The translations under genes were made by a program, and so were the position numbers. Below the pieces are notes generated by a model. It had not been told where the DNA came from. It made no database searches and worked only from the letters and a program-made list of their open reading frames with translations. DNA of 26,024 nt from a phage, in NCBI GenBank assembly GCA_012702815.1, contig GCA_012702815.1_3927.1, one strand, 5' to 3'. This document shows, one piece after another, positions 5,691 to 14,888 of this stretch. Positions within the stretch are counted from its first letter, which is position 1. The number at the start of each line of letters is the position of its first letter.

Positions 5691-6296
<606 letters not shown>

Positions 6297-8022: not shown

Positions 8023-8382
8023 ATGAAACGTGAAAACATTATCCACTCTGAAAACTTCGCATTAGGTTTTTATGGTGTACCGACTCACCTTGAAAAGTAT
8101 TATGGTGTGAAGATTCTTTCCAATCTCATTATGGCTTACAAAGATGGTAAGATTAAGCATACTGAGAAGAAACGTGTCATGGGTTATATGGCTGTAGGTT
8201 CAGCAATCTCTAACATTAAGCTGGAAACAACTAGCAGCCAGATTGTGAAAGACCACTTCATCAAAGAGCTTTACCACAACCTTGATGGTGTAGATGTTCA
8301 GGCTGTTTGGCTGGATGTTGACGGTCACAATTACACAAGTTTCGTCTTCAAAAACGACGACATTAAGTGTCTGTTTCCATAA
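8023..8382 (+). CDS. hypothetical protein
   Basis: ORF immediately following the regulator gene (TAATATG junction); no recognisable motif. Confidence 0.5.
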   Translation: MKRENIIHSENFALGFYGVPTHLEKYYGVKILSNLIMAYKDGKIKHTEKKRVMGYMAVGSAISNIKLETTSSQIVKDHFIKELYHNLDGVDVQAVWLDVDGHNYTSFVFKNDDIKCLFP

Positions 8383-8395
8383 TAGGTGATTAGTT

Positions 8396-8911
8396 ATGAT
8401 TGATATCTACTTACAAGATGCTCATGCAGACTTCCTTAAAGTGATGCTTAAAAAGTTTATGGCTTCACAGGGTGAGAATGAAGCATCTTTTAAAATAGTT
8501 ACATGTGGCGACGAAGCTGGTTTTGTTGAGATTGAACATGAAGGTACTGGAAAGACTGTTTGTAAGTTACCTGATAGTATGTTCTCTAGCACATTCTTAA
8601 CAAAGACTAGCATAAATGTTAAGCTTGTACCTCAGATTGAAACATACTCTGGTACAGATTACCCTAAAGGTTTTAAGTCACTGATGAAGTATTTCTTAGA
8701 TGACTTTGTGAGTAATCTTCTGCGAGAGGTAAAAGAAAGTCGTACAGTGTTGACTGTAGAGAACATCGGAGGAACTATCAGGGTTACTTCTGACTGCTTT
8801 GTGATGAGCCTCTTCGACTTCGTTCCTAAGAACTTTGATGGTATTCTGGATGAAGAAGATGACTGTGTAGACTTTATATTGGTTCTTGAACCAGTTTTTG
8901 AGGTTAAATAA
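8396..8911 (+). CDS. hypothetical protein
   Basis: ORF with RBS AGGTGA upstream; acidic C-terminal region. Confidence 0.55.
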   Translation: MIDIYLQDAHADFLKVMLKKFMASQGENEASFKIVTCGDEAGFVEIEHEGTGKTVCKLPDSMFSSTFLTKTSINVKLVPQIETYSGTDYPKGFKSLMKYFLDDFVSNLLREVKESRTVLTVENIGGTIRVTSDCFVMSLFDFVPKNFDGILDEEDDCVDFILVLEPVFEVK

Positions 8912-10615: not shown

Positions 10616-10625
10616 AAACAAAAAA

Positions 10626-10661
10626 GGCTCCTTTTTACGGGAGCCTTAAAATTTTATTTTT
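10626..10661. terminator. bidirectional intrinsic terminator at the convergence of + and - strand gene blocks
   Basis: Stem GGCTCC (10626-10631) / GGAGCC (10640-10645), flanked by an A-run on the left and a T-rich run on the right. Confidence 0.6.
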
Positions 10662-11025
10662 CAGTATTCTTTGTGTTCTTTTCAGTAATAGCTTGCAAGG
10701 CTGATACTGATTGGGCCAGATTGTTCACACTGTCAGAGAATTTATCAAGAGTTTTGGTAAGTTTCGCATTCTCACCCTTAACATTCTCTAACTGGACTTT
10801 CTGGTTCTCCATCCCTATCTGAATCAGTCTCATGTCAGACTGTAAATCACGAATAGCTGAATAGTTACTTTTGGAATAATTATCTAGCTGCTGTAACTTT
10901 GTTGTGACAGACACTTCTTGCTTACCACTTGAAACTTGCATAGTGGTATACATCCCAATAACACTAAAAATACCAACTACAATTGCACCAATATTATTTT
11001 TAAAAGCTTCCTCTAGCCACTTCAT
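10654..11025 (-). CDS. membrane protein with N-terminal transmembrane helix and coiled-coil (spanin-like or holin-associated)
   Basis: Hydrophobic segment NIGAIVVGIFSVIGMYTTM followed by a heptad-rich, Q/L/K-rich domain. RBS GGGGGAGA; start abuts the stop of the upstream gene. Confidence 0.5.
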   Translation of the reverse strand: MKWLEEAFKNNIGAIVVGIFSVIGMYTTMQVSSGKQEVSVTTKLQQLDNYSKSNYSAIRDLQSDMRLIQIGMENQKVQLENVKGENAKLTKTLDKFSDSVNNLAQSVSALQAITEKNTKNTEK

Positions 11026-11220
11026 TTATTTCTCCCCCTTAAAAGCTTTTTCTAAGTTATCTACGAACTCATCATCAATAGGTGTGTCTGTTTTACTCGC
11101 AAGGTATCTTGCAAGCTTAAAGAACACTTTCTCAATCATGTATTCACTCAGAAGGGATAAAATGAGTTTCCAGAAGAAGCTACCTAGATTTTTTAGAAGA
11201 ATTGCTAGGATTGTAGGCAT
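11026..11220 (-). CDS. small membrane protein (holin-like candidate)
   Basis: 64 aa with one hydrophobic helix (TILAILLKNLGSFFWKLILSLL) and a charged C-terminus. Strong RBS GAGGTGA; candidate promoter just upstream at 11264-11292. Confidence 0.5.
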   Translation of the reverse strand: MPTILAILLKNLGSFFWKLILSLLSEYMIEKVFFKLARYLASKTDTPIDDEFVDNLEKAFKGEK

Positions 11221-11299: not shown

Positions 11300-13666
11300 T
11301 TAAGCAGTTCTTACCCAAGCCATTAACTTATAGAACTGGTTAGTAACACTAAATGCTGAACCAGAACCAGTACCACCTGTGTTACCGCTAACTGTGTGGC
11401 TGTGAGCACCAATACCAACAGTGTGGCTGTGGTTACCTGTTGTATTCGTTACACCAGACCAGTTTCTTGATGCGTTGAAGTTGACAGGGATACCATTAGT
11501 AAAGTTGTTACCAGTATACCCTTTAGAACCTGCCTGACTACCGAGGTAGAATGCACCACTTGCTGTGTAGAAGCTACTAGCGTCACTTCTGAAGTAACCA
11601 AATGAACCAGTAATCTCCATAGTACCTCTGTTGTGGTTGTGGTTACCAGTTGTGCTAGAAGTCTTAGTACCATAGTCAAATGATGAAGTAGTAGCAGAGA
11701 AGCTGTGCGTGTGTGAAGGTAAGTTACCAACAGACAACGTTACAGAGTCTGAACCACCAGTTGTAGCAACATCTGAACCGTTTGCTGCTGCAATTCTAAT
11801 AGTTCTACCAACACCATTATTCAGGTACGTCCAAGTTAACCCAGGAAGTGCTGTGTTTGGGTTGACATTACTGTTAAACCACGTCACAATACCTACTGGA
11901 TAGATTTTATTCAGGTCTGTAGAGTCACTAATCGCCTCTGCAATCTTCTGGTCAGTCTCTGCTTTAGTGTATGCACCAATTTCTGAAGGTGTTGGTTTCT
12001 GAGCTTCAGTGTAAACCTTAGACCATTCAGCCTCAAAACCATACCTATCTCTGGCTGTTCTATACCATAAACCACCATTCCTGTAATCAAATCTTAATTG
12101 TGCGGTTGGTGTTGATGCTAACATATTAGCGAACAGGTGTAAGACTAAACGGCTTGAACCACCACCATTGATAGTCTCTGCATAAATGCCTGAAGGTTGG
12201 TTCCAAGCAACACCACCATCAGACTCATTCACCAAAGCTCTGGCTGATGACCATAAGTACTTCGCATCGGTTGCCGATTTAACGTAGTATCTAGCATCTA
12301 AGTTAGAGAAATCTGAAGGTTGAACTTGTCCAGCAATAGTCAATGTTTTGTTAATGTATGATGTTGTATTCCCGAGAACCAATTGGGTTCCAGAATAACT
12401 GTTATTTAGGGTAACATCATTCGTGTCAGCACCACCAACACCTACCCACCACCTTGACACATTAGCAGTGTCCACACCACGGATATACAATGGTCTGTTC
12501 TGAGTAGAGTTTTTCACAATTAGGGCTTCATTATCCGTAACAACTTTCTGTACACCATTAAAAGTATTTTGTGCATTAGTTCTTGCAATTGTACTTAATG
12601 TTGCTGCCGGAATATATCTAGAGTCAATGTTAGCCCAATCTGAAGGTTGAACTTGACCAGTGATTTGCACAGTTTTATTGATACCAATAGTAGTACCTAG
12701 TGAAACCTGTGAACCTGTAAGGTAGTTATAAATGTTTAGACGTGTCTCGTCAGAATCTGTACCAACATACCATTTATTTGTTCCATCAGACTTCTTACCG
12801 AGAATGTAAAGTGCTGTATTTGCATCAGTATTCTGCAAAGTAATGGCATTAGCATTCTTCTTAGCAACAAGGTTAGTGAAAGTGTTAGCACCTGTAAAAG
12901 TATTATTGCCAGCTAACTGTGCAAATCTCTGATTAGCTGCCGTCTGAGTAAAGTATCTAGCATCTAAGTTAGAGAAATCAGAGGGTTGAACTTGACCAGT
13001 GATTGCTAAAGACTTATTAACAGAGACATTACTTGCAACAGTCAAGGCTGAGTTGTATTTGTTATTGTACAGCTTTACTTCGTCAGAGCCATTACTACCA
13101 ATACCAACCCACCATCTAGCCGAACCATCTAGGTTTACACCTTCGATATATTGTGCATTATTTGCATTTTGGTTTCTAAGGCGAAGTAAGTTAGCATCAC
13201 CTTGAATATTTTGAGTTCCAGAGAATGTGTTTGTGATAGCAAGTCTTGCGTATCTTGCATCATTCTCTTCATTAGTCCTCATACCAAGCTCATTAGGACT
13301 TGGCTTATTCAGAGTATGATAAACAGTTGCTGACCTTGAAGCATCTGCAATAGTTAGTTTAAGACCATTTGCGTTAATTTTAAAAGTCTTTAAAATATCC
13401 CCAATAGTAATCTCAGAAGAGCCTGTAGGGTCAAATACAGACTTTCCACCGTAAAGTAACTTGACAATACCTAAATCCCCAGTCATAGTGCTTCCAGCAA
13501 TCTGAACAAACCTTTCTAGTTTGAAGGAAGCTAAGAAGTCTTGATAGGTCATTCTACGGTCTTCATCACCCAACATTTCAGGTCTTTTCTTAACTCTGAT
13601 GTGCAATAGGTCTTCTGAACGAATTGTGTCGATTGAGTTTAATTGACTCAATTTGTAATCTGCCAT
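11300..13666 (-). CDS. tail fibre protein (long), three internal ~110 aa repeats and C-terminal HxH-rich tip
   Basis: 788 aa. Three repeats each containing ITGQVQPSD(F/W)(S/A)N(L/I)D(A/S)RY; collar-like segment IYPVGIVTWF; four HxH motifs (SHTHS, NHNHN, NHSHT, AHSHT); C-terminus shared with the adjacent fibre. Confidence 0.85.
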   Translation of the reverse strand: MADYKLSQLNSIDTIRSEDLLHIRVKKRPEMLGDEDRRMTYQDFLASFKLERFVQIAGSTMTGDLGIVKLLYGGKSVFDPTGSSEITIGDILKTFKINANGLKLTIADASRSATVYHTLNKPSPNELGMRTNEENDARYARLAITNTFSGTQNIQGDANLLRLRNQNANNAQYIEGVNLDGSARWWVGIGSNGSDEVKLYNNKYNSALTVASNVSVNKSLAITGQVQPSDFSNLDARYFTQTAANQRFAQLAGNNTFTGANTFTNLVAKKNANAITLQNTDANTALYILGKKSDGTNKWYVGTDSDETRLNIYNYLTGSQVSLGTTIGINKTVQITGQVQPSDWANIDSRYIPAATLSTIARTNAQNTFNGVQKVVTDNEALIVKNSTQNRPLYIRGVDTANVSRWWVGVGGADTNDVTLNNSYSGTQLVLGNTTSYINKTLTIAGQVQPSDFSNLDARYYVKSATDAKYLWSSARALVNESDGGVAWNQPSGIYAETINGGGSSRLVLHLFANMLASTPTAQLRFDYRNGGLWYRTARDRYGFEAEWSKVYTEAQKPTPSEIGAYTKAETDQKIAEAISDSTDLNKIYPVGIVTWFNSNVNPNTALPGLTWTYLNNGVGRTIRIAAANGSDVATTGGSDSVTLSVGNLPSHTHSFSATTSSFDYGTKTSSTTGNHNHNRGTMEITGSFGYFRSDASSFYTASGAFYLGSQAGSKGYTGNNFTNGIPVNFNASRNWSGVTNTTGNHSHTVGIGAHSHTVSGNTGGTGSGSAFSVTNQFYKLMAWVRTA
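12259..13219 (-). repeat. three tandem ~330 bp intragenic repeats within the long tail fibre gene
   Basis: Near-identical ~48 nt cores at about 12291-12340 and 12953-13005 and a related core at about 12641-12667, encoding repeated QVQPSDFSNLDARY segments. Confidence 0.7.
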
Positions 13667-13681
13667 TATAAGTTTTCCTCT

Positions 13682-13701
13682 TAAAAGGGGCTATAAAGCC
13701 C
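13682..13701 (-). terminator. hairpin plus T-run between the two tail fibre genes (possible attenuator)
   Basis: GGGGCT (13686-13691) / AGCCCC (13696-13701) with a 4-nt loop; on the - strand it is followed by TTTT, then the RBS and ATG of the distal fibre gene. Confidence 0.4.
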
Positions 13702-13712
13702 CTGTAAAGAAA

Positions 13713-14888
13713 TTAAGCTGTTCTCTGCCACACATACACTACAAAAGATGGCTGCTCAACACTGAATGCTTGACCACCACCAACAGAACCAGTTGTCCCT
13801 GAGTGTGTATGCTCAGAGCTAGAAACAGTAACAGTGCCTGTATGACTGTGCGAACCAATATTAACAGTGTGGCTGTGAGCACCAATTGCGACAGTATGAC
13901 TATGAGCACCAGATGATGCAGTTGTACCTGAGAAGCTATGGGTGTGAGCACCAGCTAAATCAGTATACATAGCATTACCAACACCAGCATCAGCAGATGC
14001 AGTAATAGCATTTGTGCCACCCCTATCATTACCCCTCATAGGAACTCTATGGTTGTGGTTACCAGCATTACTTGTTGTGCCACTAAACGTGTGAGTGTGA
14101 GCACCAGCACTATTAGTCGTTTTTGTACCGTAATCAAAAGTTGATGTGCTTTTTGAACCATAATCAAAACTAGAGATAGATACACTTGCAGAGTGTGTAT
14201 GACCACCACCTGTTAGGTAGATAGAGTGAGTATGTGCTGGTAAATTATTATTTGTTAATGCTACAGTCTGAGAACCAAACATTGAACCAACAGGTCTAGA
14301 ATCTGTATCATAACCAACTAGTGCCCTACCTTTAGAAACTAACTCCCAAGTGCCACCACAAAGCAAGTAAGTGGATGGGTTAGCAGAGTTAACAGACAGA
14401 TGAATAGTCCCCACTGGATATGATGCTTGGATAGCTTTGTATAAGTTATTCACTGCTCTCGCTGTAGCATACTTATCAGCATCTTCATTGTACAGATTAG
14501 ATGTTGTCCAGTTCTGAACATTACTTAAACCAACCTGTGCTTTCGTTGTATTGTGTGGGTTACTTTTGTCGTCAATATGTTGCTGAATTAAGTTATTCAC
14601 TTCCTCTGACGACATAATTTGTAGATTTGCTCTTGCCTCAGCAACATTCACAATGTCTGACAAGTTATTAGCTGCAACTAATTGAAGAGAGTTAATAACA
14701 TTATCAAGACCCACTTGTGATTTAGTTACACCATGAGGATTATTCCTCAGAGATGCGTGAGGTGCTAACAACTGCTCAAGCGTACATCTTTTATCCTCAA
14801 CACCTTGCTTAAGGTGGAAGATATCACTCAAATCAATTGGTAAGGCCGCTTGTGGCAAGGCACTAATTTGAATTTCACCTACTGCCAT
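13713..14888 (-). CDS. tail fibre protein with collar-like domain and nine HxH motifs
   Basis: 391 aa. Repeats NPHGVTKSQVGLDNV and NPHNTTKAQVGLSNV; collar-like YPVGTIHLSV...LLCGGTWEL; nine HxH motifs; C-terminus AFSVEQPSFVVYVWQRTA. Confidence 0.85.
   Translation of the reverse strand: MAVGEIQISALPQAALPIDLSDIFHLKQGVEDKRCTLEQLLAPHASLRNNPHGVTKSQVGLDNVINSLQLVAANNLSDIVNVAEARANLQIMSSEEVNNLIQQHIDDKSNPHNTTKAQVGLSNVQNWTTSNLYNEDADKYATARAVNNLYKAIQASYPVGTIHLSVNSANPSTYLLCGGTWELVSKGRALVGYDTDSRPVGSMFGSQTVALTNNNLPAHTHSIYLTGGGHTHSASVSISSFDYGSKSTSTFDYGTKTTNSAGAHTHTFSGTTSNAGNHNHRVPMRGNDRGGTNAITASADAGVGNAMYTDLAGAHTHSFSGTTASSGAHSHTVAIGAHSHTVNIGSHSHTGTVTVSSSEHTHSGTTGSVGGGQAFSVEQPSFVVYVWQRTA

Follow-up and report, generated by a model that had tools for sequence, protein, structure and literature searches.

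Short and long tail fibres of a wV8-type Felixounavirus: T4-type collar-needle-head tips, probably old paralogues with an exchangeable head cassette

Introduction

Two adjacent genes in a 26,024-nucleotide stretch of phage DNA (contig GCA_012702815.1_3927.1; hereafter the window) encode tail fibres of 391 and 788 aa whose C-termini are both rich in HxH motifs. A preliminary description of this locus, made from the letters alone, took the two proteins to share a tip on different shafts, and thereby raised the question of what this tip is, whether it has been duplicated or exchanged between the two genes, and whether it bears on host range. The answer that we hold with high confidence is that the proteins are the short and long tail fibres of a Felixounavirus, both ending in T4-type collar-needle-head tips, which would be old paralogues that combine a conserved scaffold with an exchangeable head cassette. 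This reading is built on homology, on the register of the motifs, on the pattern of scaffold and cassette and on the paralogy of the two tips.

The fibre gene pair and its known relatives

Megablast of the window gives a nucleotide identity of 97.6% with E. coli O157 typing phages 1 and 12 and of 97.2% with wV8, and by sequence the phage belongs to Felixounavirus, within the wV8 / O157-typing-phage-1 group. On the same grounds the two ORFs are the short (STF, 391 aa) and long (LTF, 788 aa) tail fibres of this genus (Table 1). The STF matches phrog_2097 tail fiber (E=2e-139), the LTF matches phrog_4277 tail fiber from end to end, and the STF gene is 97.6% identical in nucleotides to the genes of typing phage 1 (TP1) and wV8 that are annotated 'tail fiber protein', with synteny kept. 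The locus runs on one strand from wedge 2 (489 aa) through wedge 1 (284 aa) and a 100-aa LTF-platform protein to STF and LTF, with dfr and thyA adjoining. This order from wedge to LTF is identical in TP1 and wV8, the STF/LTF pair occurs likewise in 28 Felixounavirus loci of IMG/VR, and the protein sizes of the fibre locus agree with those given in the Bas63 paper (PMC12609058). The two ORFs downstream of the LTF gene (64 and 123 aa) have PHROG matches only to families of unknown function, and no tRNA genes were found in the window. The consensus terminator scan did not report the hairpin that lies between the two fibre genes; at the equivalent site, a Rho-independent terminator is annotated in wV8.

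Table 1. Positions of the two fibre genes, of the hairpin between them and of their domains in the window (all on the minus strand)
Feature	Position	Strand	Basis
STF gene, 391 aa	13713..14888	(-)	orthologue of Bas63 gp26, Felix O1 gp76, wV8 gp82
STF collar domain, aa 157-215	14244..14420	(-)	Pfam PF21939 Gp10_C; aligns to 2XGF collar and T4 gp10
STF descending needle strand, aa 216-280, HxH 1-4	14049..14243	(-)	motif positions; alignment to T4 gp37
STF head (tip) segment, aa 281-314, 34 aa, between needle strands	13947..14048	(-)	aligns to T4 gp37 tip subdomain
STF ascending needle strand, aa 315-391, HxH 5-9, conserved C-terminal AFSVEQPSFVVYVWQRTA	13716..13946	(-)	
Terminator-like hairpin GGGGCT-TTAT-AGCCCC then TTTT, between STF and LTF genes	13683..13702	(-)	sequence reading
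LTF gene, 788 aa	11300..13666	(-)	orthologue of Bas63 gp27, Felix O1 gp77, wV8 gp83
LTF shaft, ~aa 141-460, three gp37_trimer beta-helix repeats	12287..13246	(-)	Pfam PF20744, E=9e-75, 3 stretches
LTF internal swapped cassette, ~aa 461-562, Mu S / P2 H-like gp37_C domain	11981..12286	(-)	Pfam PF12604
LTF collar domain, aa 589-648	11723..11902	(-)	BLASTP and hhalign to STF collar
LTF descending needle strand, aa 649-678, HxH 1-2	11633..11722	(-)	
LTF head segment, aa 679-745, 67-aa His-free insert	11432..11632	(-)	genus alignment
LTF ascending needle strand, aa 746-788, HxH 3-4, genus-conserved C-terminus AFSVTNQFYKLMAWVRTA	11303..11431	(-)	

A gp37-like HxH tip on both Felixounavirus fibres has been known since 2010, when the Felix O1 genome paper described the C-termini of Gp76 and Gp77 as both resembling T4 gp37 (PMC3185647). 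It was demonstrated structurally in 2025 by cryo-EM of Bas63 (Escherichia phage JohannRWettstein), in which both STF gp26 and LTF gp27 have a collar, an HxH needle and a head, the tips being hypervariable within the genus (PMC12609058). Since this shared design is already published for the genus, its presence in the window is a correct but ordinary observation, of little weight as a discovery and of practical value for annotation and engineering.

The window has in common with Bas63 the gene pair and its order, the N-terminal baseplate-binding region, helix-turn or beta-helix repeats and the C-terminal collar, HxH needle and head; the internal PF12604 cassettes of the two LTFs are 78% identical in nucleotides. 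On the other hand, Bas63 has seven HxH motifs in the STF and six in the LTF, against nine and four here, and the LTF of the window has a 67-aa His-free head in place of the innermost HxH pair and short head of Bas63. The Bas63 paper also gives five beta-helix repeats, where Pfam finds three gp37_trimer stretches in the window. The baseplate-binding domains of the Bas63 STF and LTF have been reported to be alike in structure and not in sequence (PMC12609058), and the weak profile-profile signal between the N-terminal 70 residues of the two fibres studied here (E=0.005, 27 columns, 7% probability) is consistent with that report.

With respect to wV8 (gp82 and gp83) and TP1, the STF is 97-99% identical and the LTF is identical or nearly so over aa 1-460, shaft included, and over aa ~563-788, which comprises the whole tip. 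Between these two parts, the LTF of the window carries a ~100-aa PF12604 cassette of SP22 type, whereas the LTFs of wV8 and TP1 have in this place a domain of ~150 aa that is not related to it and for which Pfam gives no match, and it is because of this difference that the LTF measures 788 aa in the window and 848 aa in wV8 and TP1. The closest nucleotide match to the cassette is phage SP22 (96.8%), and in the PDB the cassette matches 8JU3, the Mu tail fibre S (E=3e-24).

Organization of the two tips

The motif counts of the preliminary description are exact, with nine HxH in the STF (aa 219, 230, 264, 278, 315, 329, 338, 347 and 360) and four in the LTF (aa 652, 676, 746 and 755), and so are the C-terminal strings that it quoted as the similar ends of both ORFs. 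Across 28 relatives, the STF has seven or nine HxH motifs and the LTF four, six or seven.

The collar is recognized in the STF by Pfam Gp10_C (PF21939) at E=3e-18, scoring 67.4 bits against a cut-off of 27. As a single sequence, the LTF collar gives a weak match to the same family, 23.2 bits and thus just under the cut-off, and it is through the STF collar (hhalign, 99.9%) that it is tied to the T4-type tip. Both collars have a mean identity of 82% in the genus (pairwise for the STF), and the ascending strands are similarly preserved, at 75% in the STF and 87% in the LTF. The two heads belong to hypervariable blocks, with mean genus identities of 35% for the STF and 34% for the LTF. The 67-aa LTF head is specific to the wV8/TP1 group, with more distant sharing with loci L012 and L019, and a sequence search of the PDB with this head alone found no relative.

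Homology to the T4 gp37 needle tip

It had been suggested that the HxH modules are of the T4 gp37 kind, and homology searches bear this out for both fibres. Residues 145-362 of the STF match the T4 gp37 tip structure 2XGF (domains D10 and D11) at E=8e-27, and residues 646-767 of the LTF do so at E=5e-7, a value that becomes 3.5e-22 with the LTF genus profile. All seven HxH motifs of T4 align to STF motifs 2-8, three of them in the descending strand (T4 1-3 with STF 2-4) and four in the ascending strand (T4 4-7 with STF 5-8). The spacings are 34, 14, 37, 14, 9 and 9 in the STF against 32, 14, 37, 14, 9 and 9 in T4, so that the head, spanned by the 37-residue interval, has the same length in both. 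The likeness extends to the collar fold family and to a similar hydrophobic C-terminal tail, and the chain would likewise reverse at the distal head. STF motifs 1 (aa 219) and 9 (aa 360), one at each collar-proximal end, have no counterpart in T4 gp37, nor does LTF motif 1 (aa 652), and the LTF has only four motifs in total. The two systems also differ in their setting, the tip being carried here by a single-gene fibre directly at the baseplate and in T4 by a kinked fibre of four proteins. Folding in T4 depends on the dedicated chaperones gp38 and gp57A, no counterpart of which was identified here.

An enrichment in HxH could also arise as a coincidence of composition, from low-complexity repeats rich in Gly, Ser, Thr and His that have no homology to metal-binding needles. 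The composition of the region is indeed biased, and the bias term of the phmmer alignments is large, but the order and spacing of the motifs agree with T4, the collar and C-terminal tail, which are not of low complexity, align as well, and shuffled sequences contain far fewer motifs (n=5000 for each fibre; mean 1.4 and maximum 7 for the STF, mean 0.14 and maximum 2 for the LTF). We consider such a coincidence extremely improbable.

AlphaFold2 monomer models, each made with 80 database homologues, reached a pLDDT of 59.4 for the LTF tip and 59.7 for the STF tip. Foldseek searches of the PDB with both models returned no significant match, the top non-significant ones being T4 gp10 and the C24 tip protein 6OV6. 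Low confidence is what would be anticipated for monomers if the tip is an obligately intertwined trimer; the models are uninformative and have been counted neither for nor against the needle fold.

Proposed architecture and metal sites

By analogy with T4, the chain would leave the globular collar and run outward as one strand of a six-stranded beta needle, form a small distal head and then return along the needle to end at the collar in the conserved ...AFSV...W.RTA tail. An intertwined trimer with such a reversal at the head is supported for the genus by the cryo-EM structure of Bas63 (PMC12609058). In T4, every HxH triplet coordinates one Fe ion (PMC6957217, PMC12609058), and the gp37 needle holds seven iron atoms, with H929 and H931 being essential (PMC6957217). 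If the homology extends to metal binding, each HxH contributed by three chains would supply six histidines to one octahedrally coordinated ion, Fe as in T4, and the resulting stack, predicted to hold nine ions in the STF and four in the LTF, would stabilize the thin intertwined trimer. These numbers assume that the one-ion-per-HxH rule of T4 applies to the two extra motifs of the STF and to all motifs of the LTF.

A variant of this scheme keeps the fold but places another metal, e.g., Zn, in the stack, or leaves it partly occupied, so that the number of motifs would not equal the number of ions and the extra motifs might have another role. In gp12, the short tail fibre of T4, an HxH site binds Zn, and the motifs that lack a T4 gp37 counterpart (STF 1 and 9, LTF 1) lend themselves to this view. 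Against it, the register of seven of the nine STF motifs agrees exactly with that of the iron sites of T4, and no HxH histidine varies in the genus alignments, an invariance that speaks for selection on each motif. We therefore regard the variant as rather unlikely, and prefer a stack with one ion, probably Fe, at each motif.

Relationship and age of the two tips

The similar segments of the two fibres are homologous on alignment: BLASTP aligns LTF aa 589-788 with STF aa 157-391 at 32% identity (E=5e-16), and the STF and LTF genus profiles match at 99.9% probability (hhalign, E=2e-33). The homologous part comprises the last ~200-235 residues of the two fibres, in which the reduced 2+2 HxH set of the LTF is aligned by hhalign to STF motifs 1, 3, 6 and 7. 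The idea that the fibres share a tip thus holds for the collar and proximal needle, a common and paralogous scaffold, but not for the heads, as the distal needle and head are unrelated in length (34 aa in the STF versus 67 aa in the LTF) and in sequence.

It had also been proposed that the tip was duplicated or exchanged in this genome, with the nucleotide identity around IGAHSHTV as a trace of the event. That identity is real but small, amounting to a perfect core of 20 nt within 43 nt at 84% (LTF 11390-11413, STF 13863-13886). Events of this type do happen in the genus, since the STF and LTF of L016, L020 and L022 share a head cassette of ~200 nt at 80-91% nucleotide identity. It is nevertheless very improbable that the two genes of the window have recently undergone duplication, gene conversion or a tip swap. 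The tips are only 32-39% identical in protein, their head segments are unrelated, and the same codon is used at 39 of 75 aligned identical residues against 35.3 expected from codon usage, which means that the IGAHSHTV match is no closer than codon usage predicts; synonymous sites between the two tips are saturated. Moreover, the STF and LTF tips of 28 relatives form separate clades, and an STF tip is as similar to the LTF tip of its own phage (42.4%) as to those of different phages (42.5%). Recent gene conversion between the tips was accordingly rejected on the codon-identity test and the tree, and no tract of more than 100 nt of high nucleotide identity was found between the two fibre genes of this genome. 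These comparisons point to two tips that are old paralogues.

Head cassettes, receptor contact and host range

Within the genus, identity is 71-87% in the collar and proximal needle and 34-35% in the distal needle and head, a pattern which suggests that the former constitute a conserved scaffold and the latter a hypervariable, exchangeable cassette. By analogy, the head, which is encoded between the descending and ascending HxH blocks, would provide the surface that contacts the receptor. In T4, tip residues bind LPS and OmpC (PMC6957217). The receptor here is likely LPS, as for the genus, and probably LPS only (PMC8594841). Given that the head cassettes of the STF and LTF differ in the window, the two fibres probably recognize different ligands.

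Comparison of relatives for tip swapping shows that head cassettes do move, although no swap is seen in the window itself. In addition to the STF-LTF cases of L016, L020 and L022, a stretch of 287 nt with 88% identity is common to the Felixounavirus AYO145A and to T4 gene 37. Furthermore, the same collar-needle-head module, with four to seven HxH motifs, is present in prophage fibres of Enterobacterales ('phage baseplate protein / Gp10 C-terminal domain'; Erwinia, Providencia, Serratia, Xenorhabdus and others), which are 41-50% identical over the whole LTF tip and retain the FDYGTK and IGAHxHTV flanks and the ...LMGWYRSA tail. These fibres are short (~180-370 aa), have different N-terminal shafts and differ in head sequence from lineage to lineage. 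Through such swapping in relatives, the relevance of the tips to host range that had been put forward appears plausible.

An alternative places the receptor specificity of the LTF mainly in the internal Mu S / P2 H-like domain (aa 461-562) or in the shaft, and would make the HxH needle chiefly a structural end-cap. This LTF departs from those of TP1 and wV8 to any large extent only in the internal cassette, homologous domains occur in tail fibres of Mu, P2-like and P1-like phages, and the authors of the Sf14 study suggest that receptor interaction may be more proximal in such fibres (PMC11821841). However, the receptor contacts mapped in T4 are tip residues (PMC6957217), variability within the genus peaks, for both fibres, in the head block, and head cassettes have been exchanged between fibres and between phage families, as is to be expected of a specificity determinant. 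An internal seat of specificity is therefore unlikely, and the head continues to be our candidate for the receptor-binding surface.

How these cassettes move is a matter on which only a tentative proposal can be offered, one that we consider quite possible while not expecting it to prove right in all its parts. The HxH-coding flanks (FDYGTK...GxHxH on the outward strand, GxHxHxVxIGAHxHTV on the return) may act as recombination landing sites that move the distal needle and head between paralogous fibres, phage families and prophages, and the 67-aa LTF head may at the same time be a structurally new receptor-binding head on a needle cut to four predicted metal sites. The notion of landing sites is drawn from the level of nucleotide identity of the exchanged cassettes in L016, L020 and L022 and in the AYO145A-T4 gene 37 pair. 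Recombination at such flanks was long ago proposed for T-even adhesins, as 'His boxes', a term for which our literature search found no paper. If the proposal is true, its novelty would lie only in its reach across paralogues and across phage families and in the fold of the new head.

For annotation, the analysis provides collar, needle and head boundaries at residue level for both fibres of an O157:H7-infecting phage, together with 9 + 4 predicted metal sites. With the scaffold conserved, the head block would be the natural unit of exchange, and hence an obvious cut point for re-targeting the host range of wV8-type biocontrol phages.

Identity and Neighbourhood of the Two Fibre Genes

The two adjacent open reading frames (ORFs) reported in the preliminary description are present exactly as described, and their positions are listed in the table. 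E. coli O157 typing phages 1 and 12 match the region at 97.6% identity, and wV8 matches it at 97.2%. The matches comprise 235 phage records, nearly all of which are Escherichia or Salmonella phages of the Felix O1-like type. Both genes carry the annotation "tail fibre protein" in typing phage 1 (TP1) and wV8. The gene neighbourhood is also common to the window and these two phages, comprising dfr and thyA on the opposite strand, two small ORFs, the long tail fibre (LTF), the short tail fibre (STF), a 100-aa protein and the baseplate wedge proteins of 284 and 489 aa. On the basis of this annotation and synteny, the two genes are therefore the STF and LTF of a Felixounavirus, the counterparts of Bas63 gp26/gp27 and Felix O1 gp76/gp77.

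Coordinates of the fibre genes and associated features in the window
Feature	Position (nt)	Strand	Description
Terminator-like hairpin	10624-10647	both	bidirectional
Small ORF	10654-11025	-	123 aa
Small ORF	11026-11220	-	64 aa
LTF ORF	11300..13666	-	788 aa
LTF internal cassette	11981-12286	-	aa ~461-562; Mu S / P2 H-like PF12604 domain
GC hairpin	13683-13702	-	GGGGCT-TTAT-AGCCCC, then TTTT
STF ORF	13713..14888	-	391 aa
STF shaft repeats	about 14517-14744	-	aa 49-63 and 110-124

The 46-nt gap between STF and LTF contains a GC hairpin just before the LTF ribosome-binding site, and the equivalent site in wV8 is annotated as a Rho-independent terminator. This hairpin could lower LTF transcription relative to that of STF. 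A second hairpin, terminator-like and bidirectional, separates the thymidylate synthase gene (+) from the converging 123-aa ORF (-), which is the last gene of the fibre operon. The only matches of the two small ORFs directly downstream of LTF are to PHROGs without a known function (phrog_4038 and phrog_402); the 123-aa product is hydrophobic in a segment at its N terminus and has a tail resembling a coiled coil. Their position might be that expected for a fibre chaperone or lysis gene; a product nearby has been listed as 'holin or lysozyme' in Sf14 (PMC11821841). In addition, the tail-fibre repeat NPHxxTK(S/A)QVGLxNV occurs twice in the STF shaft.

A Homologous C-Terminal Module with HxH Motifs

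The similar end strings quoted for the two proteins are correct, and the homology proposed for their C-terminal segments is borne out by alignment. In BLASTP, LTF aa 589-788 and STF aa 157-391 align at 32% identity (E=5e-16), and profiles of the STF and LTF tips, built from the fibre pairs of 28 IMG/VR Felixounavirus loci, align to each other with 99.9% probability (E=2e-33). In PDB searches, STF aa 145-362 match the crystal structure of the T4 gp37 tip (2XGF) with E=8e-27, T4 gp10 being matched at about 3e-6, while LTF aa 646-767 match 2XGF with E=5e-7 and the LTF profile does so with 3.5e-22. The Pfam Gp10_C collar scores 67 bits in STF and 23 bits in LTF, just under the cut-off of 27, and LTF also contains three gp37_trimer repeats and one gp37_C domain. 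AlphaFold2 monomer modelling of both tips reached only low confidence, with a pLDDT of about 59-60, and a Foldseek search with the models gave no clear match.

The HxH counts in the preliminary description likewise hold. STF, with 24 histidines, has nine motifs (aa 219, 230, 264, 278, 315, 329, 338, 347 and 360), and LTF, with 11 histidines, has four (aa 652, 676, 746 and 755), against means of 1.4 and 0.14 after shuffling the residues. STF motifs 2-8 align with all seven motifs of T4 gp37, with spacings of 34, 14, 37, 14, 9 and 9 versus 32, 14, 37, 14, 9 and 9 in T4. Compared with T4 gp37, STF has one extra motif at each collar-proximal end, whereas LTF retains only two descending and two ascending motifs. 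Among the 28 loci, STF has 7 or 9 motifs and LTF 4, 6 or 7; in more distant homologues from prophages the number is 4-7, and the head differs from one homologue to the next.

Predicted Architecture of the Tips

In T4 gp37, the D10 domain forms the collar, and D11, inserted in D10, forms the stem plus the tip. The needle contains seven iron atoms in line, each bound by HxH histidines that the three chains contribute. Two histidines, H929 and H931, are essential, and LPS and OmpC are bound by residues of the tip subdomain (PMC6957217). Cryo-EM of Bas63 has revealed that STF and LTF both carry a collar, a six-stranded HxH needle and a head where the chain doubles back (PMC12609058). By homology, the tips described here would contain nine stacked metal sites in STF and four in LTF, and both would be expected to form trimers, bind metal and contact the receptor. 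The predicted STF head (aa 281-314) is equal in length to that of T4. The predicted LTF head is a His-free insert of 67 aa (aa 679-745), for which a PDB sequence search returned no solved relative.

An Old Paralogy with a Shared Scaffold

It had been proposed that the two fibres share a tip through duplication or exchange. Across the genus, identity is 71-87% in the collar and proximal needle strands but only 34-35% in the distal needle plus head, which is wholly different in the window's two fibres. What the two fibres share is the scaffold (collar and proximal needle strands) and not the tip as such.

The nucleotide identity noticed around IGAHSHTV is real, consisting of a perfect 20-nt core within 43 nt at 84% (window 11390-11413 versus 13863-13886), but it is no trace of recent exchange. 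Identical codons occur at 39 of the 75 identical aligned residues, close to the 35.3 expected from codon usage, and synonymous sites are saturated. STF and LTF tips also fall into separate clades across the 28 loci, and an STF and an LTF tip share no more identity when they come from one phage (42.4%) than when they come from different phages (42.5%). Together with the codon test, these results argue against a recent duplication or tip exchange in this genome, and the paralogy of the two tips is therefore old. Of the overall reading first proposed, the paralogy and a probable T4-like metal-binding needle thus stand, but the shared tip and the recent exchange do not.

It was reported in 2010 that the C-termini of Felix O1 Gp76 and Gp77 are both T4 gp37-like (PMC3185647). 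The 2025 Bas63 work described the shared collar-needle-head tip, the HxH counts and the hypervariability of the tip in the genus (PMC12609058), and the Sf14 study two fibre types, possibly for different receptors (PMC11821841). The HxH tip common to both fibres is therefore correct and already known. The present analysis adds residue-level boundaries and motif counts (9 and 4) for this phage, the exact register of the STF motifs with those of T4 and the atypical His-free LTF head. It also demonstrates that this genome has undergone no recent tip exchange.

Cassette Exchange in Relatives and inside the Window LTF

Comparison with relatives does uncover tip swapping, but outside this window. In three Felixounavirus relatives (loci L016, L020 and L022), STF (about 5748-5950) and LTF (about 8197-8410, locus coordinates) share a head cassette (GGRYGGDSIGGKQRVQ...) of ~200 nt with 80-91% nucleotide identity, which is a head exchange across paralogues of the kind first envisaged. 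In another Felixounavirus, Escherichia phage vB_EcoM_AYO145A (KR014248), the LTF tip includes a stretch of 287 nt (L010:8206-8492) that shares 87.8% identity with the distal tip of gene 37 in T4 and RB55. Two unrelated myovirus lineages thus have a head plus distal-needle cassette in common, and the match suggests that AYO145A uses receptors in a T4-like manner (OmpC/LPS).

The window LTF is itself a mosaic, at a site other than the tip. Its internal cassette matches 8JU3 (E=3e-24) and is closest to phage SP22 (96.8% nucleotide identity), whereas TP1 and wV8 carry at this position, between near-identical flanks, an unrelated domain of ~150 aa without a Pfam match. Outside the cassette the three proteins are identical or nearly so, and this difference accounts for the LTF length of 788 aa here versus 848 aa in TP1 and wV8.

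A further apparent mosaic is the head region of P0007, the tail fibre of Shigella phage vB_SflM_004, where a T4/AYO145A-like segment (NGTGAGGSKMSS) sits between the beginning and the end of a His-free head of the window type, suggesting that recombination inside heads is also possible.
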